64,000 bases of DNA from an uncultured Ruminococcus sp. (lineage in GTDB: Bacteria; Bacillota; Clostridia; Oscillospirales; CAG-272). Every line of letters begins with the position of its first letter. Position 1 is the first letter of the stretch. Below, piece after piece: positions 16,697 to 32,121 of this stretch. The notes under the pieces were generated by a model, which was not told where the DNA came from, searched no databases, and was given only the letters and a program-made list of their open reading frames with translations. The stretch covers positions 2,667 to 66,666 of the forward strand of contig CACWOQ010000002.1 of assembly GCA_902762505.1 (NCBI GenBank), written 5' to 3'. Position numbers and translations under genes: made by a program.

Positions 16697-16770
16697 GCGG
16701 GTGTAGTTCAGTGGTAGAATACCAGCCTTCCAAGCTGGCTATGTGGGTTCGATTCCCATCACCCGCTCCA
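16697..16770 (+). tRNA. tRNA-Gly (anticodon UCC)
   Basis: It folds as a cloverleaf by hand: acceptor GCGGGTG/CACCCGC, anticodon stem CCAGC/GCTGG with loop CTTCCAA, T-loop TTCGATT, and an encoded CCA. Confidence 0.95.
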
Positions 16771-16930: not shown

Positions 16931-18058
16931 ATGAGAAAATACAGACTTCGCATCGGGCTTGACGTGGATGATATACTTTACGAATGCAATTCGTACGCGC
17001 TCCGTCTGCTGAAAGAAAAGTACGGAAACGCCCCGTCGCTCGATATAAATAATATAACCGGATGGGGACTTCAGGGCAATATTGCCGATGAGAGGATAAA
17101 ATATTTCTCCGATCCGGATTTTGTCGCGTCTCAGCCGCTTTATCCCGGCGCCGCCAGGTTTGTTTCTCAGCTTTGTAAGATCGCCGACGTTTTTTTCGTG
17201 ACCGCGGTCCCGCCCGCCTGCATGACTGCGAGAGCGGAGAGGCTTGCGGCTGATTTTCCGGACGTTCCGCCGGGAAACATACTTATCGGTACGCGCAAGG
17301 ACATAGTGAATCTCGATATTTTGCTTGACGACGGGATACATAATATTTCATCGTCTCAGGCTTCTTATCCCGTGCTTATGCGCCGTCCGTGGAACAACGA
17401 TCTTTCCGGACTTCTTTCCGTGAACACCTATGAGGATTTCATCCACCTCGCCAAAATGGTCGGAAATTCTTTTGTCGGAAAAGTTCCGGATCTTCACAAG
17501 GGCGGAGTGCTTTGCCTCGTCGGCCCGTCCGGTACCGGCAAAACCGAGATCGCCGCGGCTCTGACCGAGGATAAAAGATTTGAAAAACCCGTCACGACGA
17601 CCACCCGTCCGCGAGCCGCGGGCGAAACGAAGAGCGCGTACAGGTTCGTCAGCACCGAGCAGTTCATTAAGCAAAAGGAAAACGGCGAATTCATCGAGAC
17701 TACCGTTTACGGCAAATACTATTTCGGCACGTCCGAAAAACATATCGCGCCGATAGTTGACAGCGGCAGGATCGCCGTGATACCGATTGATATCTGCGGC
17801 GCAGTCACGCTCAAGAACCTTTACGGAGCGAAAGCCGTGCTTGTATTCACCGAGCGGAACAAACGCGACATTTATATGAATATTATAAAACGTCAGATCT
17901 CAGATGAGGACAAGATCAGCCGTATGATGTCGATCGATTTTGAGCTGCGCAATATAGAGCTGTGTGATTTTTCGGTCAATTTTGACTCCGGAACCGAAAA
18001 ATGCGTCGAAAAAATTTATTCCGAATTACATATGAAGAGAGAAAAACGTAATGTTTGA
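16931..18058 (+). CDS. Fusion protein: 5'(3')-deoxyribonucleotidase-like HAD domain + guanylate kinase domain
   Basis: The N-terminal ~180 aa carry RIGLDVDDILYEC (a DxD nucleophile motif of NT5C/YorS-type nucleotidases). The C-terminal ~185 aa carry LVGPSGTGKTE (P-loop), TTTTRPRAAGETKSAYRFVS and EFIETTVYGKYYFGTS, which are the guanylate kinase blocks. Confidence 0.75.
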   Translation: MRKYRLRIGLDVDDILYECNSYALRLLKEKYGNAPSLDINNITGWGLQGNIADERIKYFSDPDFVASQPLYPGAARFVSQLCKIADVFFVTAVPPACMTARAERLAADFPDVPPGNILIGTRKDIVNLDILLDDGIHNISSSQASYPVLMRRPWNNDLSGLLSVNTYEDFIHLAKMVGNSFVGKVPDLHKGGVLCLVGPSGTGKTEIAAALTEDKRFEKPVTTTTRPRAAGETKSAYRFVSTEQFIKQKENGEFIETTVYGKYYFGTSEKHIAPIVDSGRIAVIPIDICGAVTLKNLYGAKAVLVFTERNKRDIYMNIIKRQISDEDKISRMMSIDFELRNIELCDFSVNFDSGTEKCVEKIYSELHMKREKRNV

Positions 18059-18998
18059 AGCTGTAACTGAAGCGATAAGGGAATATGAAACCGTTATCCT
18101 TCATCGCCACTGGTCTCCCGACGGTGACGCGCTCGGCAGTCAGATCGGTTTATACGAGTTCATAAAAGATAATTTCCCTGACAAGAAGGTATATAAAGTC
18201 GGCGACGGCGCGGGCAGATATTCGTTCATGTACGGATCCGTGATGGATGAAATACCGGACGAATACTATAACGGAGCTCTCGCCGTGATCCTCGACAGCG
18301 CGACAGAGGAGCTTGTATCAGACAAGCGTTTCAAGCTCGCCGCCAAGACCGTCAGGATCGACCATCATATCTACTGCGAGACCTTTACCGATATCGAGAT
18401 CGTCGACACGACGTATGAAAGCTGCTGCGGCATGATCGCTCACTTGTGCCGCGAGTCGGGACTTCACCTGTCCAAAACCGCGGCTGAGGCGATATTCACC
18501 GGTATGGTTACTGATTCAGGCAGGTTCAGATACGACAGCACGTCAGCAAGGACGTTTGAGCTTGCCGCGTATCTGATGGAGCACGGCGTAGACTGCAGCT
18601 CCATATATCTGCAGCTGTACAGCTCGGAGCTGTCGTCTGTGCTGCTTCGCGCGTCGTTTTTGTCTAAGATAAAAGTATTTGAAAACAGCTCCGTCGCATA
18701 TATTTACAATACGAAAGAGGAGCTTGAGGCTCTCGGCATATCGGATATTTTCTCCGTATCGCGCGGAATGGTCAACGTGATGGCGGATATAAAGGGAATA
18801 GATATCTGGGTGAATTTCACGGAGGACGGAGAAAAAGTCGTCTGCGAGCTTCGTTCGAGCAAATACAATATCAATCCCGTCGCTACGGCGCACGGAGGCG
18901 GCGGCCATCAGAAAGCCTCCGGCTGTGACGTTGCAGACCGCGAGGAGGCGATGGTCATGCTGAGAGAATTAAAAGCGATATCGGAGCAGAGCGAATGA
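18051..18998 (+). CDS. DHH/DHHA1 phosphoesterase, NrnA-like (copy 1)
   Basis: Motifs HRHWSPDGDALGS, RIDHH and GGGGHQKASG are present. It overlaps the upstream gene by 8 nt. Confidence 0.8.
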   Translation: MFEAVTEAIREYETVILHRHWSPDGDALGSQIGLYEFIKDNFPDKKVYKVGDGAGRYSFMYGSVMDEIPDEYYNGALAVILDSATEELVSDKRFKLAAKTVRIDHHIYCETFTDIEIVDTTYESCCGMIAHLCRESGLHLSKTAAEAIFTGMVTDSGRFRYDSTSARTFELAAYLMEHGVDCSSIYLQLYSSELSSVLLRASFLSKIKVFENSSVAYIYNTKEELEALGISDIFSVSRGMVNVMADIKGIDIWVNFTEDGEKVVCELRSSKYNINPVATAHGGGGHQKASGCDVADREEAMVMLRELKAISEQSE

Positions 18999-19975
18999 AC
19001 GAACAGATCAAAAAACAGATCATAGAGAAAATAGAAGAGTACGGTACGATAATCATAAGCCGTCATTCAAGACCGGACGGAGACGCCGTCGGATCGACTC
19101 TCGGACTTTCGGAAGTCTTGCGCGCGACTTATCCCGAAAAACGCGTATTTCTCGACAACAAGGACAGGTCCGAATACGTTTCGTTTCTCGGAGACGAGGG
19201 CGAGCGTCCGACGGACGGCGATTACACAGACGCGCTCGTAATAGTGCTCGATACCGGAAGCGTGTCGCGTATCGCAAACGACAGATACGACAAAGGCGCG
19301 TATCTTATAAAGATAGATCATCATATATTTGACGAGGATTACGGAGATATCTCGTGGGTCGAGGAAGAAAGATCGTCAGTTTGCGAGATGATCGCGGATC
19401 TTTGCGAGACTTATAAAGACAAACTCAGACTGCCGGTACACGCGGCGGAATGCATATTTACCGGCATGGTCACGGATTCGGGCAGATTCCGTTTCCGCGG
19501 TACGACCGGAGATACAATGAGGCTTGCGGCGTATCTTATGGATCAGGGTATTGATACGGAAACGATCTACGCGCATCTCGGTGCCGACGACATTGAAACT
19601 CTCAGATTCCGCGCCGCGCTTATTTCAAGGATCCAAATGACGGAAAACGGCGTCGCTCATCTTCATATCAGCTCCGCCCTGCGCAAAAGACGCGGGATCA
19701 GCCAGGAGGACGCGAGCAACACCGTATCTTTGATGGAGCATATCAAGGGCAGCCTTATCTGGCTTGCGTTTATCGAAAACGACGACAAAAGCATAAGAGT
19801 CAGACTCCGCTCGCGTTTCGTTACGGTACAGGAGCTTGCGGCGCGCTATCACGGAGGCGGGCACGCCTGCGCGAGCGGCGCGACCGTATACAGTAAAGAA
19901 GAGGCAGAAGCGCTCGTCGCCGAAGCCGACGCGATCTTAGGCGAATTCAAGAAGGAGCACCCCGGTCTGATATGA
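18995..19975 (+). CDS. DHH/DHHA1 phosphoesterase, NrnA-like (copy 2)
   Basis: Motifs SRHSRPDGDAVGS, KIDHH and HGGGHACASG are present. An ATGA overlap couples it to copy 1. Confidence 0.8.
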   Translation: MNEQIKKQIIEKIEEYGTIIISRHSRPDGDAVGSTLGLSEVLRATYPEKRVFLDNKDRSEYVSFLGDEGERPTDGDYTDALVIVLDTGSVSRIANDRYDKGAYLIKIDHHIFDEDYGDISWVEEERSSVCEMIADLCETYKDKLRLPVHAAECIFTGMVTDSGRFRFRGTTGDTMRLAAYLMDQGIDTETIYAHLGADDIETLRFRAALISRIQMTENGVAHLHISSALRKRRGISQEDASNTVSLMEHIKGSLIWLAFIENDDKSIRVRLRSRFVTVQELAARYHGGGHACASGATVYSKEEAEALVAEADAILGEFKKEHPGLI

Positions 19976-20709
19976 AAATCCTTCTGACGAACGACGACGG
20001 CATCAAAGGCGAAGGCCTGAGATATCTCGCCGAATGGTGCGCCGTCATGGGCGACGTTACTGTCGCCGCGCCGAAATTTGAGCAGAGCGGCAGATCGCAG
20101 GGGATCGTGATCAAAGTGCCGTATGAGGTCGTGTTGAGTGCGGAATATGAGGATCTCGGGATCGCGTCATACAGCGTTGACGCGTCGCCCGCCGACTGCG
20201 TCCGCTTCATCGCAGACAGAGTCGGAGTTGACTATGATCTTGTGTTTTCCGGCATCAACAACGGCTTCAACTTAGGTCATGATATCGCTTATTCGGGCAC
20301 GTGCGGAGCGGCTTTTGAAGCGAATTACGCCGGTATCAAAGCAGTATCGTTTTCCACCATCCGCGGCAATACGAAAAAGGCGTCGGAATACCTTCCCGCC
20401 GTATGGAGCTTTATCATAGGAAACGGCTTGCTTGAATACTCCGGTATGCTCAACGTGAATATCCCGGAGGAACCGAAGGGCATTCTTGTTACGGAGCAGG
20501 GCAGAACGTTTTTCCGCGACCATTTCGTCGACGCGGGCGAAAATATGTACAAAGCCGCGGTTTACCTTACCAGAAGCGTGGACGGACCTCTTGATCTGAA
20601 ATATGATACGGACGCCGTGCTCGCCGGGTATTGCTCCGTTACGCCGCTTCTGACGAACAGAACGGATCATGACGCATTGAAAAAAATATCCGAAAGGATC
20701 AAAAAATAA
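19972..20709 (+). CDS. surE: 5'/3'-nucleotidase SurE
   Basis: MKILLTNDDGI and SGINNGFNLGHDIAYSGTCGAAFEA are SurE signature blocks. An ATGA overlap couples it to the upstream gene. Confidence 0.9.
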   Translation: MKILLTNDDGIKGEGLRYLAEWCAVMGDVTVAAPKFEQSGRSQGIVIKVPYEVVLSAEYEDLGIASYSVDASPADCVRFIADRVGVDYDLVFSGINNGFNLGHDIAYSGTCGAAFEANYAGIKAVSFSTIRGNTKKASEYLPAVWSFIIGNGLLEYSGMLNVNIPEEPKGILVTEQGRTFFRDHFVDAGENMYKAAVYLTRSVDGPLDLKYDTDAVLAGYCSVTPLLTNRTDHDALKKISERIKK

Positions 20710-20721
20710 AGGAGAATCATT

Positions 20722-21102
20722 ATGGCTAATTCAAACGGACTTTTTTCTGTCAACGACAGAACTGCCGAGTTTGATCAGAACGACGCTCAGCAGAACAAGG
20801 TGATGGGTATTCTTTCCTATATCGGAATACTCGTACTCATCCCGATCTTTGCCGCCAAGAATTCCAAATTCGCACGCTTCCACGCAAACCAGGGACTTGT
20901 GATCGCGATCTGCGAGATCGCGTCTTACATAGTTCTGTCGCTTCTGCTCGGCAGGATCCCGTACGTCGGAGGAGTCTTCACGTTCATCAACTACCTGCTC
21001 GACGTGTTCCTGCTCGTCCTCTCCATCCTCGGGATCGTATTCTCGGCAAAAGGACAGGCGAAAGAGCTTCCGATCGTCGGAAAGATCAAGATCCTGAAAT
21101 AA
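20722..21102 (+). CDS. Small membrane protein, DUF4870-like
   Basis: The 126-aa product has three predicted TM helices and the motif ARFHANQGL that I recall from DUF4870 proteins. It starts 13 nt after surE. Confidence 0.55.
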   Translation: MANSNGLFSVNDRTAEFDQNDAQQNKVMGILSYIGILVLIPIFAAKNSKFARFHANQGLVIAICEIASYIVLSLLLGRIPYVGGVFTFINYLLDVFLLVLSILGIVFSAKGQAKELPIVGKIKILK

Positions 21103-21104
21103 AA

Positions 21105-21141
21105 GCAAAAAAATCACCCGGTCACACCGGGTGATTTTTTT
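21105..21141. terminator. Bidirectional intrinsic terminator between the two convergent operons
   Basis: An A-run, then ATCACCCGG-TCACA-CCGGGTGAT, then a T-run. Confidence 0.85.
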
Positions 21142-21145
21142 GTAT

Positions 21146-22735
21146 TCAGTGCTTTTTTTTTGCAAGGACTACGGCGCAGCCGACGGATGCGAGCAGAGCG
21201 ACTGCTGCAACGGAAACGGCGGCGTCGGATGTTTCGGGCGAAGGTTCGGGCTTGTCGGCTTTGACGAGCTTGTCGAGCTTGCAGCCCTGATTATACTCAT
21301 ACGTGCCCTTATAATTCTTGAAGGAACCGGTCACGGTGATCGTATCGCCGACTTCGATCTTATCGGCGTCGGTGCCTTCGAGTCTGTAGCACATTACGGG
21401 CTTGTCGTCATGACCTTCAACAACGATCGTTACGGTAACGTTATTGTATTCGGTGCTGAACGGAGTGTCTACCGTCTTAACGACGCCGGTGAGCGTGAAC
21501 GGTCCGGCAAGGGATTCGTTATCCTTGAGAGCGTACAGAGCTTCAAGTATCTCGTCGACGGTCTCGGGAACTTTTTCGTCCTCTTTTTCGGCTATCGTGT
21601 ACGCGTCAAGCGTGCAGTTTGCGTCGAATTCAACGGTGCCGTTGTAATTTTTGAGAATACCCGTGACGGTTATCGTGTCGCCAGATGCGATCTTGTCAAC
21701 GCCGTCAACGCCTTCCTTGTTGATCATGCGGAAGCACTGGACGGGCTTATCTTCAAAACCTTCGACTGCCATTGTTACGGTAACGTTGCCGTATCTTTCG
21801 CTGTATACCGTGTTTACTGCGGTGATCTTACCGGTAAGGGTGTACGTGCCGGGAAGAGCGGCGCCCTGCTCGAGAGCGTACGCAGCGTTCAGTATTTCTT
21901 CGGGCGTAGTGTAGGTGGGCTGCTCGGGCTGTTCAGCTTCGCCCTTCTTATAGGCGATCTCTTTGCAGGCGGCGTCGAACTCGTAAGTATCGTTGTATCT
22001 CTTGAGCTGACCTTCGACCTTTATCGTATCGCCGACAGCGAGCAGAGCGGCGTGCTCGCCTTCAAGACGGAAGCACTGCACGGGCTTGTCGGTCATGTCT
22101 TCGACTATGATCGTGACGGTGACGTTGTTGAATTTTTCGCTGTAAGCGGTATCGACGGATTTGATAACGCCTTCGAGCGTGTAGGGACCGCCGGCGAGAA
22201 ATTCGCCTTTTTCAAGTTTGTAAAGCGCTTCAACGATCTCCTTAGGAGTCTTTGGCGCGGGCTCGGGCTCGGGCTCGGGCTCGGCGGCGCCTTCAAGCGA
22301 GACCGCTATGCTCTTGAATCTGATCTGTTTGCCGGATTCGTTGCTGAACTTGATCTCCTTGGCGCTGCCGGTCCAGTTTCCGGTTCCGTCAAGTACGAAG
22401 CTGCCGGTGTCAGCGGTGACTGCATACGTATACTGGGAAGAACCGTATGTAAAGGTGATGGCTGTGATATTGCTGTCGGCTTTTACGGTAAAGCTGTTGC
22501 CGGCGTAGACTCTGAACGTTCCGTTGTCATAATGCTTCGGAACCAGCGATTCGTTTGTTCCGGCTTCGAAGGTTATCGTAACGCCGTCGCTTGTGACGGT
22601 ACCGATCTCGGCGCCGTCAGCCAGACCGAAATCGTTGGGATTGAACGTTACCGTTTTTGCTTCAGCGTTGACCGCGAGGCAGAGAACTGAAACGGTCATC
22701 ATTATCACCAGCAGAAGTGAGATGATCTTTTTCAT
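21146..22735 (-). CDS. Secreted, C-terminally anchored surface protein with 3 OB-fold-like modules
   Basis: AGGAG RBS, then a signal peptide (MKKIISLLLVIMMTVSVLCLAVNA). Next come a ~120-aa beta-rich N-domain, a (PE)n linker and three ~95-aa modules (TPxEIxxAxYAL..G..L.G.YTLTG.I..V.T.YS..Y.NVTVT..V.G...KPV.C[FY]R......GDTITV.G.LK.Y.GT.E[FY]...C). The C-terminus is a hydrophobic helix plus KKKH. Confidence 0.8.
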   Translation of the reverse strand: MKKIISLLLVIMMTVSVLCLAVNAEAKTVTFNPNDFGLADGAEIGTVTSDGVTITFEAGTNESLVPKHYDNGTFRVYAGNSFTVKADSNITAITFTYGSSQYTYAVTADTGSFVLDGTGNWTGSAKEIKFSNESGKQIRFKSIAVSLEGAAEPEPEPEPAPKTPKEIVEALYKLEKGEFLAGGPYTLEGVIKSVDTAYSEKFNNVTVTIIVEDMTDKPVQCFRLEGEHAALLAVGDTIKVEGQLKRYNDTYEFDAACKEIAYKKGEAEQPEQPTYTTPEEILNAAYALEQGAALPGTYTLTGKITAVNTVYSERYGNVTVTMAVEGFEDKPVQCFRMINKEGVDGVDKIASGDTITVTGILKNYNGTVEFDANCTLDAYTIAEKEDEKVPETVDEILEALYALKDNESLAGPFTLTGVVKTVDTPFSTEYNNVTVTIVVEGHDDKPVMCYRLEGTDADKIEVGDTITVTGSFKNYKGTYEYNQGCKLDKLVKADKPEPSPETSDAAVSVAAVALLASVGCAVVLAKKKH

Positions 22736-24488
22736 TTTAAACTCCTTGATTTATGCAAAATTATTTGACTATAGTGCATCCGTTGTCAAATTCGTACGTA
22801 TCGTTATATCTCTTCAGGTTGCCTTTGACGGTGATAGTATCGCCGACTTTGATCGTATCGGCGCCGTCACCCTTGAGACGGTAGCAGGTAACGGGATAAT
22901 CGTCAAGTCCGTCGCATACTATAACAACGGTGACGTTGTTGTATCCGCTGTCGTAAGGCGTGGGGATGGAGGTGATCTTGCCGGTCAGAGTGAACGGACC
23001 GCCTTCGAGCGCCTCGTTTTTGTTGAGCGCATACAGCGCTTTTACGATCTGTTCCGGAGTCTCAAGCTTCGGCGCGGTATTCTCGGAGACGAAATCGATC
23101 TTGTCGAGCGTGCAGCCTGCGTCGAATTCGACCGTGCCGTTGTAATTCTTGAGCTTGCCGGTAACGGTTATTTTGTCGTTCTTCTTGACTTTGTCCGCAT
23201 CGGTGCCCTTCATACGGAAGCACTGTATCGGCTTGTCTTCGCAGCCTTCAACGGCGATCGTAACGGTCACGTTCTTGAATTCGTCGCTGTACGGGGTGTT
23301 GACGGACGTTACCGTGCCGGAAAGAGTCCACGTTCCGTCAAGTGCCTTGTCCTTTGCGAGAGCGTACGCCGCTTCGACTATTTCCTTCGGAGTCTTTTCG
23401 ACAGGCTGAGTATCTTCTTTCTTTGTCGTGGTTTCCTCTTTGGTCGTGTCGGCGGGGGCGGCGGATGACTCGACCTTGACAAGCTCGCAGCCCTCCATGA
23501 ACTCGTACGTGCCCTTATAGTTCTTCAGGCCGCCTTTTACGGTGATCGTATCGCCGGCTTTTATCGTATCGACGCCGGTACCTTTCAGACGGTAGCACAT
23601 AACGGGCTTGTCTTCGAAGCCCTTGACTTTGATCGTTACGGTCACGTTTTTGTACTGATCGCTGTAAGCGGTGTCGACATTGGAGATCTCGCCTGTCAGC
23701 GTGTAGCTTCCTTCGATCGTTTCGCTGTCTTTCAGAGCGTAGAGCGCGTTGATGATCTTTTCGGGAGTGTCAAGCTCGGGGGATCCGGGCGTCGACGCCG
23801 ATTCGGTGCCGGACGCCTCGTCTGTCGTTGCATCGGAGGGGTCGGATACGGAATTGATTTTGACTATCGTGCAGCCGGCGTCGTATTCATACGTATCTTT
23901 GTATCTTTTCAGATAGCCGCTGACGGTTATGTTGTCGCCTGTCTTGATCGTGTCCGCGCCGTCGCCCTTAAGGCGGTAGCACGTTACGGGATATTCGTCA
24001 AAGCCTTCAACAACGATAACTACGGTCACGTTGTTGAAACCGGCGTCGTAAGGAGTGGGAACGTCGGTGATGGTACCGGTCAGCTCGTAGGGACCGCCGT
24101 CGACCGCTTCATCCGCGTTCAGCGCGTACAGAGCTTTAAGGATCTGTTCGGGCGTCTCGAGCTTCGGCGACGTGTCCTCGGCTACGAAGTCGATGCTGTC
24201 GAGAGTGCAGCCGCTGTCGAATTCGACGGTGCCGCTGTAATTCTTGATCTTACCGGTAACGGTGATCTTGTCGTTTTTCTTTATTGTGTCGGCGCCCTCG
24301 CCCTTGAGGCGGTAGCACTGTATCGGTTTGTCTTCCTTGCCGTCCACCGCGATCGTTACGGTTACGTTGTTGTATTCGGCGCTGAAAGGCGTATTTACCG
24401 CGATTATCGTTCCGGACAGGGTGTACGTTCCGTCAAGAGCCTCGCCGGGGGCGAGCTCGTAAGCGGCTTCAAGCACGTCGGTAGGAAC
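21269..24488 (-). repeat. Eight in-frame copies of a ~285-bp coding module spread over two genes
   Basis: Module boundaries were read from the translations: 24488-24192, 24158-23859, 23771-23472, 23393-23097 and 23063-22764 in the 716-aa gene, and 22249-21269 (three modules) in the 529-aa gene. The units 23859-24488 and 22764-23393 align at the nucleotide level with an offset of about 1.09 kb. Confidence 0.85.
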
Positions 24489-24911
24489 TTTGACGACGTA
24501 TTTGAATTCAATGTCCTTGGAAAGTCCGCCGTTTGAGACGGTACCTTTTACGGTGAATTCGGATCCGTTGACAGCCTCGGGTCCGATTACGACCTTCACG
24601 CTGTCGTTTTCAGAGGGTTCTACGGTGATCTTACCGTCCGCGCCTTCGACGACCCAGTCGATATCAAAGTCAAAGCCTTCGTGATCAATAAGCTTCGTGG
24701 GAAGCGTGAAGGGAGCTGATACGGTGTTTTTGAGTCCGGGCTTGTTGTATTCGTAAACAACTGCCGCGGCGCTGTCAACGATATCCTGCGTTATCGTTTT
24801 GACGCCGGGGTCGGCGGCTGCCGTCGTATCGTCGCCTTGACCGTTATTGCACGCGGCAAGCGATGATACGAACATGAACAAGACCAGGATCAGAGCCAGT
24901 CCTTTTTTCAT
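22761..24911 (-). CDS. Surface lipoprotein with 5 OB-fold-like modules
   Basis: AGGAG RBS and a lipoprotein signal (LVLFMFVSSLAAC). A small Ig-like N-domain is followed by five copies of the same ~95-aa module as in the downstream gene. Modules 1-2 and 4-5 are a duplicated pair. Confidence 0.8.
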   Translation of the reverse strand: MKKGLALILVLFMFVSSLAACNNGQGDDTTAAADPGVKTITQDIVDSAAAVVYEYNKPGLKNTVSAPFTLPTKLIDHEGFDFDIDWVVEGADGKITVEPSENDSVKVVIGPEAVNGSEFTVKGTVSNGGLSKDIEFKYVVKVPTDVLEAAYELAPGEALDGTYTLSGTIIAVNTPFSAEYNNVTVTIAVDGKEDKPIQCYRLKGEGADTIKKNDKITVTGKIKNYSGTVEFDSGCTLDSIDFVAEDTSPKLETPEQILKALYALNADEAVDGGPYELTGTITDVPTPYDAGFNNVTVVIVVEGFDEYPVTCYRLKGDGADTIKTGDNITVSGYLKRYKDTYEYDAGCTIVKINSVSDPSDATTDEASGTESASTPGSPELDTPEKIINALYALKDSETIEGSYTLTGEISNVDTAYSDQYKNVTVTIKVKGFEDKPVMCYRLKGTGVDTIKAGDTITVKGGLKNYKGTYEFMEGCELVKVESSAAPADTTKEETTTKKEDTQPVEKTPKEIVEAAYALAKDKALDGTWTLSGTVTSVNTPYSDEFKNVTVTIAVEGCEDKPIQCFRMKGTDADKVKKNDKITVTGKLKNYNGTVEFDAGCTLDKIDFVSENTAPKLETPEQIVKALYALNKNEALEGGPFTLTGKITSIPTPYDSGYNNVTVVIVCDGLDDYPVTCYRLKGDGADTIKVGDTITVKGNLKRYNDTYEFDNGCTIVK

Positions 24912-24932: not shown

Positions 24933-26303
24933 TTATTGAGATATGATCTCGCAGTCGGCAAGCGTGAACAGCTTGAGCTGCGGGTTGCCGTTAAAGAAAG
25001 TCACTATGCCGGAGCAATTCAGAGTCTTGCCGCGGAAATAATCCTCCGTTACGGTAGAGCCGTCTTCCGCGGTGAGCTTAACCGTGCGTACCGTTACGGT
25101 CTTGCCGTCGGCGGAACGGCAGGTAAGCGTCATCGCTCCGTCGCTCTGCGTTGTGCTTTGCGTAGTATATATGCTTGTTACGGTGAGGTTTTCAAGACGG
25201 ACGAGAACGTTTTCAAGCGTTTCGTTGTTGTTTATATCGTCAGCCGAAATAAGCACGGGTTCGGTTTTAACGTCTTTTTCGAGGATCTTCGTGTCGTCGT
25301 CGGTCGGATTGATGAGCGAGAACGACAGACCGGATATCTGAAATCCGAAGTTTTCGTTATCGTCGGCGGTGCCGGTTATGAGAAGTCTGTAACCGGGGAT
25401 GAGGAATTTCGGCGCAAGCGAGGCGTAGCCGCCGTAAACGTACACACCGTAATACTGCTGAGTATCCTCGTCGAAAGACTGAACGTAGATGCCGCCGCCG
25501 CTCTCTTTTGTAACGACGCCTTCAAATCTTACTTTGGTCGCGTTATAACTGCTCTTGTTGAGCACAAGCGATTTGATCGAAAGCTCGACTGCGGATCCGT
25601 AATAGAAAAGCGGGTCCTTTTTGCCGGAATAGAGGTTTATCTTTTCCGTTCTCGCGCTTGTCAGCGCGTTCATTGCGGTAGTGCCGTAACGGGTCGACGA
25701 GGTGCTTTTGCCCATTGCGAGACCGTCGGCTAAGATCTCGATATTGAGATTGCGCCACGTTTCGCTGTCCTTCGGCCTGTACCAGACCCAGGCGAGATAT
25801 CTGTCGCCCGTGGAATCGAGTACGGCGGAGCCTTCCTCGTTGCTTTCAAGCACTATTTCAGCAGCATCCTGAAGCTTTGACTTCGTATATCTGGATGCCG
25901 GTTTACCCCACGGCTCGACCTTGCCGGTCGATTCCGGAGTGTCTATCGCAAGGAATCTGACCTTGATGATCTCGGTGCGGGTGTAATTCCAAAAATGCAC
26001 AGTGTCGCCGTCGATGAACTGCTCAACGGTCACGAGACCTCTGCCGGTCTTGTTGAAGTCGTTTTGAATGTCGGAGGTTTTCAGCGTCTCCATCGCTCCG
26101 AAGTCGGGCAGGGAGGGATCTCTTACGTATTCCCATACGCCTTCGTCTCCGCCGCCTTCGTCGGTTTCGGGTATGGTCACGTCACCGGTGACGGTCCCGT
26201 CGGACGGGGCGTCCCGTCTGCACGAGCCGAGCACCGCCGTAAGAGATACGACGGTGATCAGCGCGAGCATAAGGGATAATATTTTTAATATATCCTTTTT
26301 CAT
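24933..26303 (-). CDS. Secreted lipoprotein: staphylococcal-nuclease (SNase/thermonuclease) domain + C-terminal OB-fold-like domains
   Basis: The lipobox is TAVLGSC. SNase motifs are present: IDGDTVHF, KVRFLAIDTPES (Arg, Ca-binding Asp-Thr and catalytic Glu positions) and GDRYLAWVWY (second Arg). The C-terminal ~190 aa show OB-like patterns (VRFEGVVT...GIYVQ..., LVRLENLTVT...). Confidence 0.8.
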   Translation of the reverse strand: MKKDILKILSLMLALITVVSLTAVLGSCRRDAPSDGTVTGDVTIPETDEGGGDEGVWEYVRDPSLPDFGAMETLKTSDIQNDFNKTGRGLVTVEQFIDGDTVHFWNYTRTEIIKVRFLAIDTPESTGKVEPWGKPASRYTKSKLQDAAEIVLESNEEGSAVLDSTGDRYLAWVWYRPKDSETWRNLNIEILADGLAMGKSTSSTRYGTTAMNALTSARTEKINLYSGKKDPLFYYGSAVELSIKSLVLNKSSYNATKVRFEGVVTKESGGGIYVQSFDEDTQQYYGVYVYGGYASLAPKFLIPGYRLLITGTADDNENFGFQISGLSFSLINPTDDDTKILEKDVKTEPVLISADDINNNETLENVLVRLENLTVTSIYTTQSTTQSDGAMTLTCRSADGKTVTVRTVKLTAEDGSTVTEDYFRGKTLNCSGIVTFFNGNPQLKLFTLADCEIISQ

Positions 26304-26309
26304 AAAACG

Positions 26310-27764
26310 TTACTGGTTGAGCGTTACGCAGCGGTTGTAAGCGTCAACGAAAAGCTGCTTGAGCTCATCCTGCGTCGCCGTGGAGGCGGCGGAAATGTAA
26401 GCGACGAGAAGCTTGCCGACCTCGTCACGGGCGTCGGAAGAGCCTATGAACGCCGGGGACGTGAAGTAAGCGCTTTCCTGTTCCATACAGATCTTGGCGG
26501 AAAGAGCCGCGATGCCGTCCTTCGTCATGTTTGCGCCGCTCAGGAATTCCTTGTAAGCGTCAAGCTCGAAAGCGGATTTGAGAACGGGAACGTAACCGGA
26601 CGCCATGGAGAATTCAGCCTGGAATTCGGGGGAGGTGAGTAAGAATTTGAGGAATATCCACGCCGCGTCGTTGACGGTCTGATCCTTCTGCTTGAGCATG
26701 GTGATCGAAGGACCCTGAGAGATGACCTTCTTGTTGGAGGCGTCAGCCTGCGGGATGGTTGCGATACCTACCTCGAACGGATAAGATCCGTTATCGCTCT
26801 TGGCGGGGCACTGATAAGTCGCGCCGGCGGAAGAACCGATCGAAATGTAGGAATGGATGACCTTGCCTTCTTCGTTTGCCGTGGTGTTGGTGAAAAGACC
26901 GGAGGTGTAGCCGCCGTAGATCGCCTGAGTGGTCATGAGACCGTTCTGGCACCAGCCGCGGAATTTTTCGCAGAACTCGATATTCTGCTCATTGTTGAAC
27001 AGGAAGCGGTCCTGAACCTTGTCGACAGCCTGGGTGTACGGGGTCTTGAGCTGTTCGGTCATCGTGATGAACCAGTTAGCCTCTGAGTCGTATCCGAGCG
27101 GGATGCTGGTGGGTTCGATCTCTTTTATCTTTTTAATGACGTATTCGACGGAGGTGTCGTCGGTGGCGCCGGTGGAGAACCAGTGATCCGGAACTTTAAG
27201 ACCGTTGTTGTCGAAGAACGTCTTGTTGTAGTACATGACCTCGGTCGACTTGGAGAAGGGGAGCGAGTACATTTTGGACGTGTCGCCGAACTGCTGACCC
27301 TCGGCGTAGTAACCGGCGATGAAATCGTCTATCTGAGCCTGAGTGAGACCGACCGTCTCGTCGTTGATGTATTCGTTGAGGTCAACGACCTTCTTACTGC
27401 GGAGGTAAGTTGCGACGTGGTCCGGATAGCAGTACGCGAGAGCCGGCTGTTTGCCAGCCTGCAGCTCGGTGATGACCTGGTCGCGAACGTCGTCGTAACC
27501 GCCGATCGTCTGCTGGTCGATCGTGATGTTCGGGTATACCTTGTTGAATTCGGCGATGTACTTTACGAGAACGTCGCTGAGGTTTTTACCCATCGTGTGA
27601 TAGAAAGTGACGGTAACGTCACCGGTGGGAATGCTATGGGTCGTTTTGCTTCCCTGGCTGCCGGAGTCGTCCGGATTGTTACTGCCGTCGTTGTTATTGC
27701 AGGCGGTAAGGAATCCGCAGACGAGCATGCAGACGAGAAGCATCAAAGCAATAAATTTTTTCAT
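26310..27764 (-). CDS. ABC transporter substrate-binding lipoprotein, family-1 (sugar/CUT1-type)
   Basis: AGGAG RBS and lipobox GFLTAC. The 484-aa product has the typical extracellular solute-binding family 1 layout (VTFYHTMG..., ...YSLPFSKSTEVMYYNK...). Its stop is only 6 nt before the nuclease start. Confidence 0.8.
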   Translation of the reverse strand: MKKFIALMLLVCMLVCGFLTACNNNDGSNNPDDSGSQGSKTTHSIPTGDVTVTFYHTMGKNLSDVLVKYIAEFNKVYPNITIDQQTIGGYDDVRDQVITELQAGKQPALAYCYPDHVATYLRSKKVVDLNEYINDETVGLTQAQIDDFIAGYYAEGQQFGDTSKMYSLPFSKSTEVMYYNKTFFDNNGLKVPDHWFSTGATDDTSVEYVIKKIKEIEPTSIPLGYDSEANWFITMTEQLKTPYTQAVDKVQDRFLFNNEQNIEFCEKFRGWCQNGLMTTQAIYGGYTSGLFTNTTANEEGKVIHSYISIGSSAGATYQCPAKSDNGSYPFEVGIATIPQADASNKKVISQGPSITMLKQKDQTVNDAAWIFLKFLLTSPEFQAEFSMASGYVPVLKSAFELDAYKEFLSGANMTKDGIAALSAKICMEQESAYFTSPAFIGSSDARDEVGKLLVAYISAASTATQDELKQLFVDAYNRCVTLNQ

Positions 27765-27830: not shown

Positions 27831-28757
27831 TCAACCCTTGATCCCGCTGCGTGATACTCCGCGCATGATGTATTTGCGCAGGAACACGAAGACGAGGAAC
27901 AACGGGATGGATACGATGGTGACGGCAGCCATCTGAGCCGGGTAGTTCGTTTCGCCGAATTCATCGGTGAAGCTCGCTCCGCGCAGACCGTTGGTGATCA
28001 ACTGGTGAGCCGCGTCGTTGGCGACGAGCCTCGGCCAGATGTACGCGTTCCAGGCGCCCATCATTTTCAATATCGTTATCGTTATGATAGTGGAGACGGA
28101 GAGAGGAAGCATTACCTTCCAAAGGTATTTGAAATCGCTTGTGCCGTCGACCTTGGCGGCGAGATACAGCTCGTTCGGGATCTGCATGAAGGTCTGACGG
28201 AGCAGATAGATGTAGAAGACCGAGACAAGCATCGGGAAGATCAGTACCGCGAACGTGTTCGTGATGTCGAACGCCTCGACAGGCTCGGATACGAATGGCA
28301 GACGACCCGATACGGTGAGGTAGTTCGTGATCGTGTACAGCTCGCCGGGGACCATCATCGTCGCCATGAGCAGACCGAACATAAGGTTCCTGCCCTTGAA
28401 CTGAAGTCTCGCGAACGCGAAAGCGCTGAAAACGGTCACGATAAGCGAGAGCACCGTGGAAACTACGCCGACAAACATCGTATGGGCGAACAGATCCATA
28501 AGGTTTGCTTTGCTGAACGCCGTCACGAAGTTTTCAAAAACGAAATTCTGCGGCCAGAGCGTCGGCACGTTGGCGCGGTATTCGTCCATCGTCTTGAATG
28601 ACGAGATTATCATCCAGTAGAACGGGAATATGACGATTATCGCCATAATGCCGAGGAAAAGATACGTAATCGTATAACGGATTATTTTAGAAGTGCGCTG
28701 CGATGCCTTGACGGATTCAACGTTGACTTCTTTTACAGCATTGTTAAATTCAGCCAT
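27831..28757 (-). CDS. ABC transporter permease (MalG-like)
   Basis: The product has six TM segments and an EAA-type loop (ELYLAAKVDGTSDFKYLWKVMLPL). The ATG at 28757 is preferred over the TTG at 28769. Confidence 0.85.
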   Translation of the reverse strand: MAEFNNAVKEVNVESVKASQRTSKIIRYTITYLFLGIMAIIVIFPFYWMIISSFKTMDEYRANVPTLWPQNFVFENFVTAFSKANLMDLFAHTMFVGVVSTVLSLIVTVFSAFAFARLQFKGRNLMFGLLMATMMVPGELYTITNYLTVSGRLPFVSEPVEAFDITNTFAVLIFPMLVSVFYIYLLRQTFMQIPNELYLAAKVDGTSDFKYLWKVMLPLSVSTIITITILKMMGAWNAYIWPRLVANDAAHQLITNGLRGASFTDEFGETNYPAQMAAVTIVSIPLFLVFVFLRKYIMRGVSRSGIKG

Positions 28758-28765
28758 GACGCACC

Positions 28766-29743
28766 TCAATAATGTACTTTCTTCTTACTGACGTAGCCGT
28801 TTATCGCGGTGACTATCAGTATGATGCCGAACAGTATGAGCGAAGCGGCGGAGGCGTTGCCGGAGTTGCTTTTCGGCAGCATGTTGTAAACGTAACCGAC
28901 GAGCGTGTTCATCTGACCGTTTCCGCCCGGACCCATTCCGTCTCCGAATATACCTACGATACTGGAGTATTCCTTGAATCCGCCGATGAAGGACGTTATG
29001 ATGACGTACGCAAGCATCGGGGAAACGAGCGGGATGGTTATGCGGAAGAACGTGCGGATCTTTGAGGTACCGTCGATCTTCGCGGCTTCATAATACTGTT
29101 TGTTGACGTTCTGCAGTCCGCCCAAAAGTACGAGTATCTTGAACGGTATCGCGTTCCAGATGATGTACGTGCAGACAACGAACATGTTAGCGCCCCAGGA
29201 GGAACCGACGTTGACGAAGTTGATCGGCTCTATCCCGAATATTCCTATTATGTTGTTGATTATACCCTGAGTCTGTATAAGGTCGCCGAGACCAACGCGG
29301 GTGAACATGGCGTTGAAGACCATGCCTATCGCTATGGAGTTGGTGACGTAGGGAAGGAAGAACACCGTTTGCAGGAATTTCTGCAGCGGTTTGATCGAGT
29401 TCAGCGCAACGGCGATGAGGAGAGCGAGAGTCGTTGAGATCGGAACGGTTATTACGCAGAGCAGAAGCGTGTTTTTGAGGCACAGCTTGAAGTCGACGTA
29501 ATTGATGACCGTTTTGAAGTTTTCGATACCGATCGTGAACTTCTCGCCGCCGACGATCGCAAGACCGTTGTAACCGTTGAGAAACGCCATTCTGAACGTG
29601 TTCAGGAGCGGATAGAAGGAGAAGATTATGAGAAGTATGAGCGCGGGGGACAGGTAAAGCCAGCCTTTGAACTGATTCTTTACGTCTATGTTGTCGGACA
29701 CGGCGCGCAGCTTCTTCTTTTTCACAGCCTTTTCTTTACTCAT
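28766..29743 (-). CDS. ABC transporter permease (MalF-like)
   Basis: The EAA loop is YYEAAKIDGTSKIRTFFRITIPL. A GAGGTG RBS lies before the ATG at 29743 (MSKEKAVKKKK...). Confidence 0.85.
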   Translation of the reverse strand: MSKEKAVKKKKLRAVSDNIDVKNQFKGWLYLSPALILLIIFSFYPLLNTFRMAFLNGYNGLAIVGGEKFTIGIENFKTVINYVDFKLCLKNTLLLCVITVPISTTLALLIAVALNSIKPLQKFLQTVFFLPYVTNSIAIGMVFNAMFTRVGLGDLIQTQGIINNIIGIFGIEPINFVNVGSSWGANMFVVCTYIIWNAIPFKILVLLGGLQNVNKQYYEAAKIDGTSKIRTFFRITIPLVSPMLAYVIITSFIGGFKEYSSIVGIFGDGMGPGGNGQMNTLVGYVYNMLPKSNSGNASAASLILFGIILIVTAINGYVSKKKVHY

Positions 29744-29753
29744 ACGGACCACC

Positions 29754-30848
29754 TCAGAACCTGATTCTTTCGCCGGTTTCGTTGTTGAATATGAAGACCT
29801 TGTTTCTCTTGAGATCAAAGCGGACGACGTTGTTTTCGCCGGGCGTCACTCTTATGTCGGCGTCGATTATGGCGCGTACGCTCGGCTTGCGGGAAGCGGA
29901 GTTTTCGAAAACGACCGAGCAGTCGCGTCCCATGACCTCTATGTTGACAAGCTTTCCGGTGAGCTTGCCGGACTCGCTCGGTACGAATCCCTCGGGGCGG
30001 ACGCCGACCGCGACTTCGCCGTCGGGCGCGTCAACGTCCATGACGGCGTCTTCGCCGATGAACAGTTTGCCGTGATCGACGCGTCCGTCGAAGGTGTTGA
30101 TCGGAGGCGTGCCGAGGAACTGCGCGACGAACAGGTTGCCGGGATCGTCGTATACGCTCTGCGGTTCGCCGATCTGTTGAACGACGCCTTCCTTCATAAC
30201 GACGATCATATCGGAGATGCTCATCGCCTCTTCCTGGTCGTGAGTTACGAAAACGGTGGTAACGCCTGTCTCGCGCTGGATCCTCCTGATCTCTTCACGC
30301 GTCTGCAGACGCAGGCGCGCGTCGAGGTTGGACAGCGGCTCGTCGAGAAGAAGTACTCTCGGCGTTTTTACGAGCGCTCTCGCGATTGCGACGCGCTGCT
30401 GCTGACCGCCGGAAAGCTCGCTCGGCTTTCTGTCCATCAGCTCGCCGATCTGAACGAGGTCGGCTGCGTGCTGCGCACGGTCAAGCATTTCCTCTTTGGT
30501 GAGCTTTTCTTCACCCTTGAGGTTTTGAAGAGGGAAGAGGATGTTCTGCTTTACCGTAAGGTGCGGATAAAGCGCGTAATTCTGGAAAACAAGACCTACA
30601 CCGCGGTGCTCGGGTTCGAGTGACGTTACGTCTTTGTCTCCGAAAAGGATCTTTCCGCTCGTGGGCTTCTGCAGACCGCTTATCATGTAAAGCGTTGTGC
30701 TTTTGCCGCATCCGGAGGGACCGAGCAGACCTATGAGCTTGCCGTCCGGTATCTCGATATCGAGATCGTTAACGGCTACGACTTCCTCGCCGCTTTTTTT
30801 GTTTCTGCTGGGGAAGCTCTTCGTGAGATGTTGTAATGTGATTCTCAT
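29754..30848 (-). CDS. ABC transporter ATP-binding protein (MsmX/MalK/UgpC-like)
   Basis: It has Walker A GPSGCGKST, the signature LSGGQQQRVAIARAL and Walker B LLLDEPLSNLD, plus a C-terminal regulatory/TOBE-like domain. An AGGAG RBS is present. Confidence 0.9.
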   Translation of the reverse strand: MRITLQHLTKSFPSRNKKSGEEVVAVNDLDIEIPDGKLIGLLGPSGCGKSTTLYMISGLQKPTSGKILFGDKDVTSLEPEHRGVGLVFQNYALYPHLTVKQNILFPLQNLKGEEKLTKEEMLDRAQHAADLVQIGELMDRKPSELSGGQQQRVAIARALVKTPRVLLLDEPLSNLDARLRLQTREEIRRIQRETGVTTVFVTHDQEEAMSISDMIVVMKEGVVQQIGEPQSVYDDPGNLFVAQFLGTPPINTFDGRVDHGKLFIGEDAVMDVDAPDGEVAVGVRPEGFVPSESGKLTGKLVNIEVMGRDCSVVFENSASRKPSVRAIIDADIRVTPGENNVVRFDLKRNKVFIFNNETGERIRF

Positions 30849-30864: not shown

Positions 30865-31674
30865 TTATTTATTTTCAGGTAAATCTACGTTTACCGTCGT
30901 GCCTTTATACGGATCGTACGCGGCGGAAGATTCTGCCGCTTTCTTTTCATATTCGTCGCGCTCGGCTTCTGTCTTGAATATTCGCTGACTTGCCCAGTCA
31001 ACCACGACCGTGTCGGCGAGGACGTCGTGCAGAAGCAGACTTCCGCGGCTTTTTATAAGCGTTACAAGCTCTGCTATGGCAAATACAGCCAACAGTATAA
31101 GCCCGAAAACGCCGGTGACTCCGGAAAAGGAGGTCACGATAACGGCGGCGGGAAGCGCGGCTTCAAGTGTGCCTTTGCCTACAACGCCGCGAACGAAAAG
31201 CACCGGTCTGCTTATTTGAGTGCAGCCGGTGCGCATTACACCGAGCCCGAAAAGAAGCTTACCGGGAGTCCTTCCGTCGCCCGTGAAGGCGGGGATAAGA
31301 AACTCAAGTAAGAGCGCCGATATCACGATGCCCGCGGCGAATATCGAAAACGATATTGCGTAAGAGGTCCTTATCGCGGCGTTCGCCTCTTCATCTGCGT
31401 TTGCCGCGGCGACCGCCGCCTCGTATACCGATCTTTCCTGCTCGGATAATTTGTAGTATTCTTCGCGCGTCATTTTCGCGGTCTCGCTGAATGACACGCC
31501 GTATTCTTCTTCGTATCTGTGTATGATCTGTTGATACTTTTCGTTATAGGAATCCACGTTGAGAATGCTTGACATAAGAAGATAAAGGCCCGCGGTAAGT
31601 ATGGCGGCGATTATTATATCGCAGAGAAACGCAAAAATGCGTTTACTGTATGGCGCCTTCTGTACGTCAGTCAT
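30865..31674 (-). CDS. RDD-family membrane protein
   Basis: KRIFAFLCDIIIAAIL and TPGKLLFGLGV are typical of RDD domains. A GAGGT RBS 8 nt before the ATG at 31674 makes it the preferred start over 31710. Confidence 0.6.
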   Translation of the reverse strand: MTDVQKAPYSKRIFAFLCDIIIAAILTAGLYLLMSSILNVDSYNEKYQQIIHRYEEEYGVSFSETAKMTREEYYKLSEQERSVYEAAVAAANADEEANAAIRTSYAISFSIFAAGIVISALLLEFLIPAFTGDGRTPGKLLFGLGVMRTGCTQISRPVLFVRGVVGKGTLEAALPAAVIVTSFSGVTGVFGLILLAVFAIAELVTLIKSRGSLLLHDVLADTVVVDWASQRIFKTEAERDEYEKKAAESSAAYDPYKGTTVNVDLPENK

Positions 31675-31727
31675 CAACGGATACCTCATAACGGAAAGAT
31701 TTTGACACAATACGACTTATTATATTC

Positions 31728-31756
31728 AGTATAACAAAAATAAAATGTGATGTCAA
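31728..31756 (-). promoter_or_regulatory. Sigma-A-type promoter of the RDD-ABC-nuclease-OB operon
   Basis: On the minus strand: TTGACA (31756-31751), a 17-nt spacer, then TATACT (31733-31728). Confidence 0.65.
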
Positions 31757-31963: not shown

Positions 31964-32040
31964 GTACCCTTAGCTCAGCAGGATAGAGCAACTGCCTTCT
32001 AAGCAGTAGGTCGCCGGTTCGAATCCGTCAGGGTACGCCA
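31964..32040 (+). tRNA. tRNA-Arg (anticodon UCU)
   Basis: Acceptor GTACCCT/AGGGTAC, D-arm GCTC...GAGC, anticodon stem ACTGC/GCAGT with loop CTTCTAA, T-loop TTCGAAT, and an encoded CCA. There is one C-U mismatch in the T-stem. Confidence 0.9.
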
Positions 32041-32043
32041 TAT

Positions 32044-32121
32044 GGTGGATATAGCACAGCTGGTTAGCGCGTCAGGTTGTGGCCCTGAAGGTCGCCGGTT
32101 CGAATCCGACTATCCACCCCA
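32044..32121 (+). tRNA. tRNA-His (anticodon GUG) with encoded G-1
   Basis: An extra 5' G pairs with discriminator C73 (G-GTGGATA...TATCCAC-C-CCA). The anticodon stem is TCAGG/CCTGA with loop TTGTGGC. Confidence 0.9.

Follow-up and report, generated by a model that had tools for sequence, protein, structure and literature searches.

Introduction

OB folds attached to secreted nucleases are already known. In YhcR of B. subtilis, SWAN of S. sanguinis and ExeM/NucH of Shewanella, one to a few tandem OB modules of the PF01336 kind accompany a nuclease outside the cell; SWAN carries a YhcR-like OB fold (CDD cd04486; PMC4118848), and deletion of the YhcR-like OB region of ExeM almost abolishes nuclease activity (PMC6085458). 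Nucleases of this sort have also been found beside importers: Mycoplasma SNase lipoproteins adjoin ATP-binding cassette (ABC) transporter operons thought to import nucleotides (PMC9740415), and a cluster of DNA-degrading genes that includes a thermonuclease and ABC transporters is reported from Izemoplasma (PMC8397711). Here we analyze a locus of an uncultured Ruminococcus sp. (Oscillospirales; CAG-272) in which two adjoining genes, hereafter A and B, encode eight copies of an OB module directly behind an SNase gene. The locus lies in a 64,000-nt stretch of contig CACWOQ010000002.1 (assembly GCA_902762505.1), which we call the window.

Like the YhcR, SWAN and ExeM/NucH group, the locus sets predicted extracellular OB modules of the PF01336 kind alongside a secreted nuclease, and as in YhcR and ExeM the coupling to the nuclease is physical, the SNase gene lying 21 nt upstream and some homologues being fused to Endonuclease I. 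Unlike that group, it carries the modules on separate, non-catalytic proteins, with the SNase encoded by the preceding gene, in arrays of three to five (up to 13 in homologues), and each module has a conserved N-terminal helix and two conserved cysteines. The genetic coupling of a Ca2+-type SNase lipoprotein to an ABC importer recalls Mhp379, MAG_5040, Mpn133 and MHO_0730 of Mycoplasma, and the present operon likewise combines intact SNase catalytic residues with four ABC genes directly upstream. The available part of the Mycoplasma report (PMC9740415) mentions no OB-array proteins in those operons. The present locus adds such proteins and differs further in its convergent pair of NrnA-like genes with SurE and in its walled Clostridia host. 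Its substrate-binding protein, permeases and ATPase are Ugp-like, as in the organophosphate branch of the CUT1 importers, where a Thermus protein that binds the dinucleotide U3G (uridylyl-3'-5'-phosphoguanosine) is placed beside UgpB (PMC12718374, PNAS 2025, citing Chandravanshi et al., FEBS J 2021).

Our searches of the literature turned up no account of the proteins, or of the operon, in Clostridia. Three features are new: a distinct and very common unnamed subfamily with an N-terminal helix and two conserved cysteines, the display of many module copies on separate, non-catalytic surface proteins, and a near-obligate pairing with SNase inside an operon that encodes a Ugp-like ABC importer and lies opposite SurE and two NrnA-like genes. 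We lean towards the view that A and B are surface-tethered, non-catalytic arrays that capture extracellular DNA or RNA for scavenging, and we hold the assignment of fold and family with much higher confidence than this function.

Two genes encode eight copies of one module

The open reading frame (ORF) listing gives two adjoining minus-strand genes, A at 22761..24911 (716 aa) and B at 21146..22735 (529 aa), with the start of B 25 nt downstream of A. Together they hold exactly eight modules of ~97–101 aa, five in A and three in B, and a hidden Markov model (HMM) of the module, searched across all six reading frames of the 64-kb window, matched only these eight, with no ninth copy. The eight align with 23 invariant columns, both cysteines among them, and a mean column identity of 67%; pairwise identity is 48–76% in protein and 60–75% in DNA, against 43% in an out-of-register control. 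A preliminary description of this DNA had placed eight copies with an invariant cysteine pair over two genes at 21269-24488. The alignment and the window search confirm the count and the cysteines, and the span was essentially right, as the modules map to 21281-24497. The repeat is no chance feature, because its profile matches 3258 cluster representatives among 1.84 billion proteins. The two genes are laid out as follows.

22761..24911, minus strand: gene A, 716-aa lipoprotein with a ~100-aa N-terminal domain and five OB modules running to the C-terminus
24207-24497, minus strand: module A1, aa 139-235
23871-24161, minus strand: module A2, aa 251-347
23487-23777, minus strand: module A3, aa 379-475, the copy modeled with AlphaFold2
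23112-23402, minus strand: module A4, aa 504-600, paralogue of A1 (70% aa, 75% nt)
22776-23066, minus strand: module A5, aa 616-712, paralogue of A2 (76% aa, 75% nt)
21146..22735, minus strand: gene B, 529 aa, three OB modules and a C-terminal sorting signal
22280..22657, minus strand: N-terminal domain of gene B, aa 27-152, beta-sandwich
21965-22255, minus strand: module B1, aa 161-257
21614-21916, minus strand: module B2, aa 274-374, with a 4-aa insertion
21281-21571, minus strand: module B3, aa 389-485
21149..21280, minus strand: C-terminal tail of gene B with an SPETSD motif, a hydrophobic helix and KKKH

Both products are predicted to be exported and anchored at the surface. Gene A begins with the lipoprotein signal MKKGLALILVLFMFVSSLAAC, with the lipobox LAAC, followed by a low-complexity linker, the ~100-aa domain and five repeats that reach the final residues (…GCTIVK, then stop). 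Gene B starts with a type-I signal peptide and continues with a ~125-aa N-terminal domain, an EPEPEPEP linker, three repeats and the tail, which corresponds to a PxTGD motif, transmembrane segment and K/R residues in its homologues, that is, a sortase-type sorting signal. Gene B and its closest orthologues (P0163, P0218, P0236) carry PxTSD (SPETSD or SPDTSD), in which Ser replaces the usual Gly. Among the retrieved homologues, a lipobox-like signal occurs in 98 of the 120 scanned for it and a PxTG(D)-type tail in 33 of 248 (P0082-P0329). The lipobox of A and the signal peptide and sorting signal of B thus bear out the extracellular location proposed in the preliminary description, as far as sequence motifs can tell.

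The N-terminal domain of gene B (aa 27-152) matches no Pfam family and is confidently predicted to form a beta-sandwich (predicted local distance difference test score, pLDDT, 96.2). Its Foldseek matches are weak and fall on jelly rolls resembling carbohydrate-binding modules (CBMs): the GH84 N-domain, a pectate-lyase CBM and Ruminococcus flavefaciens 5fu5, with a query TM-score (TMq) of 0.5–0.57. A homologue search with this domain alone returned no match, and its relatives were recovered among the 329 homologues already retrieved, of which 16 have it at the N-terminus (13 of the 16 with a C-terminal sorting signal) and one, P0318, internally. The EPEPEPEP linker behind the domain is encoded by a hexanucleotide repeat at 22258-22284 (CGGGCT on the plus strand), a possible slippage site.

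The arrays are paired with a secreted nuclease

The gene context is the most informative clue to the function of the arrays. We surveyed 78 genome loci retrieved via the eight-module alignment, which comprise the closest relatives only, and sought neighboring genes by tblastn within 10 kb. SNase was found in 51 of the 78 loci, the substrate-binding protein (SBP) in 46, the permeases and ATPase in 38–39, SurE and the two DHH genes in 36–37, and the RDD gene, conserved in first-gene position, in 34; contig ends truncate many of the loci that lack the full gene set. In 50 of the 51 SNase-bearing loci the OB-array ORF starts less than 400 nt downstream of SNase on the same strand, and this pairing persists while SNase identity falls to 34%. 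Since a conserved transporter operon encodes the arrays right behind a secreted nuclease, we consider extracellular DNA or RNA their most likely ligand.

Individual loci fill in this picture. The four that were inspected first (L001, L004, L005 and L006; 48–100% identity) share the order RDD-ABC-SBP-SNase-OB array, facing SurE-DHH-DHH in all four. A fusion of NT5C and guanylate kinase (GK) recurs in L004, in L086 and in 9 of the 78 loci, and L005 has a thymidine kinase instead. In L086 (1-24687) a 2228-aa OB array is fused to Endonuclease I, and the locus further encodes two Metallophos/5'-nucleotidase proteins, PNP_UDP_1, DeoC, PHP and two NT5C-GK fusions, so that it looks like a complete DNA-catabolic island. 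The additional genes of L085 encode Endonuclease_NS, a lamin-tail-domain (LTD)-OB protein and an HD phosphohydrolase.

A predicted operon with a Ugp-like importer faces nucleotide-salvage genes

In the window, A and B are predicted to be the last genes of an eight-gene operon of RDD, ABC ATPase, two permeases, binding lipoprotein, SNase, A and B. A single transcription unit is predicted because a promoter-like site precedes the RDD gene and a terminator follows gene B; the genes upstream of SNase are spaced by 6 to 66 nt or overlap. The flanking features are these.

24933..26303, minus strand: SNase-family lipoprotein nuclease, 456 aa, 21 nt upstream of gene A
26310..27764, minus strand: substrate-binding lipoprotein (SBP) of a Ugp-like (CUT1) ABC importer
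27831..29818, minus strand: two ABC permeases, one UgpE-like and one UgpA-like; where the upstream gene starts is uncertain
29754..30848, minus strand: ABC ATPase, UgpC/MalK-like
30865..31710, minus strand: RDD-family membrane protein, first gene of the predicted operon
31728..31756, minus strand: TG-extended promoter-like site TTGACA-17-TATACT, the best in the region, ahead of the RDD gene
21106..21142, minus strand: intrinsic terminator directly after gene B, with a 17-bp perfect stem flanked by A- and T-runs, bidirectional
16931..20709, plus strand: convergent cytoplasmic nucleotide-processing genes, namely an NT5C-guanylate kinase fusion, two NrnA-like DHH/DHHA1 genes and SurE
16931-18058, plus strand: the NT5C (5'(3')-deoxyribonucleotidase)-guanylate kinase fusion
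18051-20709, plus strand: two tandem NrnA-like DHH/DHHA1 paralogues, then the 5'/3'-nucleotidase SurE
20722-21102, plus strand: 126-aa multi-pass membrane protein after SurE, no Pfam or NCBIfam match

The SNase (PF00565, 39.8 bits) aligns with S. aureus SNase with its catalytic residues D-G-D-T, R, D-T-P-E and R intact. Its C-terminal half (aa 231-456; 24933-25610, minus strand) resembles one or two OB/DUF5689-like domains, with a sub-threshold match to PF18942 (E 8e-5). A profile comparison of this half with the modules was not significant (E 0.032, probability 1.6%); their topology looks similar, but that is no evidence of homology.

The tight gene pairing would also suit arrays that act as a docking scaffold, binding SNase, SBP or one another to assemble a complex or regulate the nuclease. 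Multivalency is what such a scaffold would need, and since the SNase has its own OB/DUF5689-like half, substrate binding may already be provided. Yet the SNase contains no cohesin- or dockerin-like partner motif, and in the fusions to Endonuclease I the array and a catalytic domain share one polypeptide, an arrangement also seen in YhcR and ExeM, whose OB region is taken to bind substrate. We regard protein docking as improbable.

All four transporter parts match the UgpB, UgpA, UgpE and UgpC models (glycerol-3-phosphate/phosphodiester) best, with scores well short of the equivalog cut-offs. Among solved structures, the SBP is closest to the 7c0f/7c0v series from Thermus thermophilus (E 7e-18), with UgpB a close second, and these matches cover mainly the N-terminal lobe; the SBP also matches the Mycoplasma P68 lipoprotein model (E 3.6e-14). 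The 7c0f/7c0v (7c0x) entries are those of what we take to be a Thermus dinucleotide-binding protein. Because the parts are Ugp-like and the SBP is nearest to the Thermus series and UgpB, uptake of phosphorylated nuclease products is plausible, and we regard the transporter as a candidate for the import of organophosphates, perhaps di- or oligonucleotides.

On the opposite strand, the two NrnA-like paralogues score 240 and 224 bits against an equivalog cut-off of 350. A competence-type DNA receptor had been considered as well; the family-scanned flanking genes, which belong to nuclease, transport and nucleotide salvage, include no competence genes. No riboswitch or other Rfam element was found upstream of the operon.

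Three side observations concern the borders of these genes. The terminator at 21106-21142 separates the convergent OB-array operon from the SurE-side genes. The 126-aa membrane protein has only a weak precomputed MamF_MmsF match, in L001. Three tRNA genes flank the region (31964-32118, plus strand; 16697-16767, plus strand), two of them in tandem and divergent from the operon promoter region.

The module is a divergent OB fold

We modeled module A3 with AlphaFold2 (AF2) from an alignment of 36 diverse modules. The model is very confident (mean pLDDT 97.6, predicted TM-score 0.89) and consists of an N-terminal helix (residues 4-12) followed by a five-stranded closed barrel of OB topology, with strands at 19-38, 43-50, 53-64, 76-86, and 89-92 plus 97-101. 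Foldseek against the PDB placed the N-terminal anticodon-binding OB domains of LysRS first (E 3.6e-4, TMq 0.60–0.65, 11–18% identity), then RPA32 (TMq 0.53) and the OB domains of CcmE. The LysRS domain (class IIb; 6kab, 5vl1) is thus the closest solved fold, with the same helix and five-stranded OB barrel and membership of PF01336; unlike the module, it is cytoplasmic, single-copy and part of an enzyme. A few structural neighbors are OB folds of other function (Potempin A, CcmE), and the BFVD viral library returned generic OB folds only (LysRS, tRNA_anti-like, SSB, ligase, RecD). The neighbors in the two libraries are thus, for the modeled structure, mostly nucleic-acid OB domains.

Sequence profiles lead to the same clan. 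The gathering score of PF01336 (tRNA_anti-codon, OB-fold nucleic-acid-binding domain) is 27 bits, and the whole products of genes A and B exceed it with 54.5 and 41.7 bits; most homologues carry a precomputed match to the same family. Single modules score below the cut-off, the best reaching 23.3 bits (E 6.4e-5), with seven of the eight detected at E<=0.1 and a match that spans residues 26-94, leaving the N-terminal helix and the last strand outside. A search of PDB sequences with the module profile gave nothing below E 0.1. Its best match, RPA70 (E 0.13), means that sequence similarity to solved single-stranded-DNA-binding OB domains of SSB or RPA is not significant. NF033681 (NCBIfam ExeM/NucH) has weak matches in its OB region (E 3.1e-5 and 1.4e-4), which cover model positions ~40-130 only and reach ~21–23 bits against a full-length cut-off of 300 bits, and JGI labels two homologues 'DNA/RNA endonuclease YhcR...'.

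The helix plus OB-like barrel anticipated from sequence is therefore what AF2 and Foldseek recover, and the suggested likeness to the OB folds of surface nucleases gains support from the weak NF033681 matches, the YhcR labels, the upstream SNase and the Endonuclease I fusions. The module had also been called new-looking, which holds in part: single modules fall below PF01336 and have no dedicated family model or name, but the whole proteins pass it. Because they do, and because the fold matches the LysRS-type OB domain, we place the module within a known OB fold and clan, as a divergent subfamily that has no name, and do not regard it as a new fold.

Conserved positions suggest a ligand

Statistics on conservation, cysteines and charge were drawn from 1041 modules. 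Many polar and aromatic positions are 85–100% conserved in this set; the conserved aromatic, polar and basic positions include Y/W37, Y41, N43, Y/F61, R62, K64 and K84-N85-Y86, with Y/W37 and Y41 located between the first two strands. In the gene A product and in most of the 98 lipobox-bearing homologues, the modules lie distal to the lipid anchor and extend to the C-terminus. An array that ends the protein beyond its anchor, together with such strongly conserved polar and aromatic positions, suggests that the arrays have a ligand and are not mere spacers.

The two cysteines, Cys60 and Cys96, are invariant in the eight copies and conserved at 93% (first) and 90% (second) in the larger set. Both are present in 871 modules, the first only in 92, the second only in 67 and neither in 11; their losses are uncoupled (odds ratio 1.55, p = 0.23). 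The residues that replace them (A/V/L/F for the first cysteine, S/A/T/G for the second) are as expected of buried small positions. Because losses are independent and substitutions of buried character, these data argue against an obligate disulfide or a shared metal site, either of which the cysteine pair had been suggested to form, while a disulfide could still occur in modules with both cysteines.

The internal duplication is old

A two-module unit is duplicated within gene A. The units A1-A2 and A4-A5 are offset by exactly 1095 nt, and a gap-free alignment of 627 nt shows 75% nucleotide identity between them, against 43% in the out-of-register control. In protein, A1 and A4 are 70% and A2 and A5 76% identical, and the 15-aa inter-module linkers of the two units are homologous (TLDSIDFVAEDTSPK versus TLDKIDFVSENTAPK). 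The higher-order duplication proposed at an offset of about 1.09 kb is thus real. The inference drawn from it, recent expansion with potential for recombination, did not hold. Nei-Gojobori estimates of synonymous (dS) and non-synonymous (dN) divergence between the units are dS = 0.97 and dN = 0.18; orthologues 76–77% identical to the gene A product (P0083, P0084) retain five modules with position-by-position orthology, and the longest identical in-register run is 13 nt. For these three reasons the duplication is old, not recent. The more distant relatives P0102, P0105 and P0123 carry the unduplicated unit. Recombination of the RecA type requires some tens of identical base pairs, so that a run of at most 13 nt leaves recombination potential at the locus unsupported. 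With dN/dS = 0.185, both copies of the unit are under selection.

The cysteine and duplication data together bear on one further explanation, that the modules form a redox- or metal-binding cysteine pair in a recently expanded, recombination-prone repeat locus. Each cysteine is ~90–93% conserved, in the AF2 model the first sits in strand 3 and the second shortly before the final strand, these strands are neighbors in an OB barrel, and copy number varies widely across the family. The uncoupled losses and buried-type substitutions run counter to it, as do the divergence between the units, the five-module layout kept among orthologues, the short identical runs and the finding that the sole exact direct repeat of at least 20 nt within genes A and B encodes the (EP)n linker. 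We consider this explanation very improbable.

The subfamily is common in gut and rumen Clostridia

To gauge the size of the subfamily, the module profile was searched against 1.84 billion proteins and matches were counted as representatives of 50%-identity clusters: 3258 at E<=1e-3 and 566 at E<=1e-30. The gene A product as query found >1000 proteins. No dedicated family model or name exists for the module, and the descriptively named homologues are 'hypothetical' or bear a generic label. All 78 surveyed loci are from metagenome-assembled genomes (MAGs) of gut or rumen Clostridia, comprising 'Ruminococcus sp.' RUG bins, Oscillospiraceae, Lachnospiraceae, Faecousia, Pelethomonas and Anaerotruncus. 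An identical gene A occurs in the ENA metagenome scaffold STEW19-1_SAMEA5383803 scaffold_260; the nearest genome bin is RUG12346, with 90% module identity. A tblastn search of the PLSDB plasmids with the gene A product gave no match. In a domain-fusion survey of 29 long homologues, three have Endonuclease_1 (Endonuclease I) fused to OB arrays. Some long relatives (P0235, P0221, P0318) contain a further repeated region of ~150 aa with the pattern G.AY...K....G...G.Y..TT.....A.DV..E...GG...Y, which has no Pfam match in most.

Alternative functions of the arrays

Several observations weigh against the capture of nucleic acids by these arrays. To the sub-threshold PF01336 scores of single modules and the empty profile search of the PDB must be added that the 78 loci are not independent, since all are nearest relatives from related MAGs, and that 16 of them hold paralogous copies without nuclease or salvage genes, beside neighbors that are mostly unannotated (one is a cohesin protein). 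The modules are acidic (median isoelectric point, pI, 4.5, with only 5% above 7), which is unusual among nucleic-acid binders, and the surface exposure of the conserved residues is assumed. In a few homologues the modules are paired with CBM26, X25, dockerin, choline-binding or lectin-type domains; the partners there include starch-binding modules, ricin-type and F5/8-type C domains. The modules are therefore used also in surface proteins without an obvious nucleic-acid role. Finally, the gene B modules stand between the beta-sandwich head and the wall anchor, in the position of a stalk. The acidity is not decisive, because the whole secreted set of the operon shares it: the SNase has a pI of 4.6 and the binding protein of 4.65, and both N-terminal domains are acidic as well.

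The stalk position in gene B raises the possibility that the OB repeats are passive spacers, rigid beads that span the wall and position another part, such as the N-terminal domain of either product or a fused enzyme, without a ligand of their own. A head, three modules and a sorting signal in succession, a module number that ranges from 3 to 13 among homologues, the variety of unrelated partners (CBM26, X25, dockerin, choline-binding repeats) and the acidic pI would all fit such a role. In the gene A product, however, nothing is projected, because the array itself forms the end of the protein that points away from the anchor, as it does in most homologues; the conservation of polar and aromatic positions goes beyond the needs of a spacer, and a near-obligate pair with SNase is not expected of a generic one. 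A purely passive stalk therefore seems unlikely to us, if less so than any other single alternative.

The partner domains and the cohesin protein at one paralogous locus could also speak for an OB fold that binds oligosaccharides and tethers proteins to polysaccharide or to the cell's own wall, as could the weak resemblance of the gene B N-terminal domain to CBM-like jelly rolls. Scans of the whole proteins and of single modules against Pfam and NCBIfam found no carbohydrate-binding or adhesin family, so the match that would have placed the modules in such a family did not appear. None of the structural neighbors is a sugar-binding OB fold, most being nucleic-acid OB domains, and the genes conserved beside the arrays encode nucleases and enzymes of nucleotide salvage instead of glycoside hydrolases. 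Glycan or cell-wall binding is accordingly a poor prospect, on a level with protein docking. Given the acidic modules, the 16 loci without salvage genes, the odd partner domains and the stalk layout of gene B, we nevertheless leave the stalk, glycan and scaffold readings, taken jointly, a considerable minority share of the probability.

Discussion

The capture of nucleic acids, which we favor, would proceed in four steps. Polyvalent OB arrays would hold extracellular DNA or RNA at the cell surface, where the adjacent Ca2+-type SNase would cut the captured polymer into 3'-phosphorylated mono-, di- and oligonucleotides. The Ugp-like importer would take up the released organophosphates, and the NrnA-like phosphoesterases, SurE and the nucleotidase/kinase fusion would finish salvage in the cytoplasm. 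Our data show the repeat architecture, the OB fold, the signals for export and anchoring, the size of the family and the rigid linkage of the genes; that the modules bind nucleic acid, what the transporter carries and in which order the steps occur are inferred.

More tentatively, and somewhat against our own expectation, the locus as a whole may be an undescribed 'nucleic-acid utilisation locus', widespread in gut and rumen Oscillospirales, with the OB arrays as its capture subunits. In that case the SNase lipoprotein would cut what the arrays capture, the Ugp-like importer would be specialized for di- or oligonucleotides, and the NrnA paralogues and SurE would complete the breakdown. SusE and SusF of Bacteroidota, non-catalytic tandem-module lipoproteins that stand beside a surface hydrolase and an importer and hold polymer at the cell surface, offer an analogy only: fold, phylum, envelope and presumed polymer are all different, and there is no homology. 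If the interpretation is right, the locus would be a Gram-positive, nucleic-acid counterpart of a polysaccharide utilization locus.

Nucleic acids reach the gut with the diet, from shed host cells and from lysed microbes, and offer phosphorus, nitrogen and carbon in rich supply. To our knowledge, little has been described of how Clostridia, among them the abundant and for the most part uncultured Oscillospirales, harvest them. If the arrays act as we propose, the locus would supply a concrete, testable list of parts for every stage from capture and cleavage to import and cytoplasmic finishing, a candidate di- or oligonucleotide importer, and a simple genomic marker, an SNase gene followed by an OB-array gene, with which thousands of 'hypothetical' surface proteins in metagenomes could be annotated. 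The module, small and very confidently modeled, is an easy target for binding and structural work. Should the arrays not bind nucleic acid, the family would still be among the commoner unnamed extracellular repeat modules of gut Clostridia. The conserved locus makes nucleic-acid scavenging by uncultured gut Clostridia directly testable.

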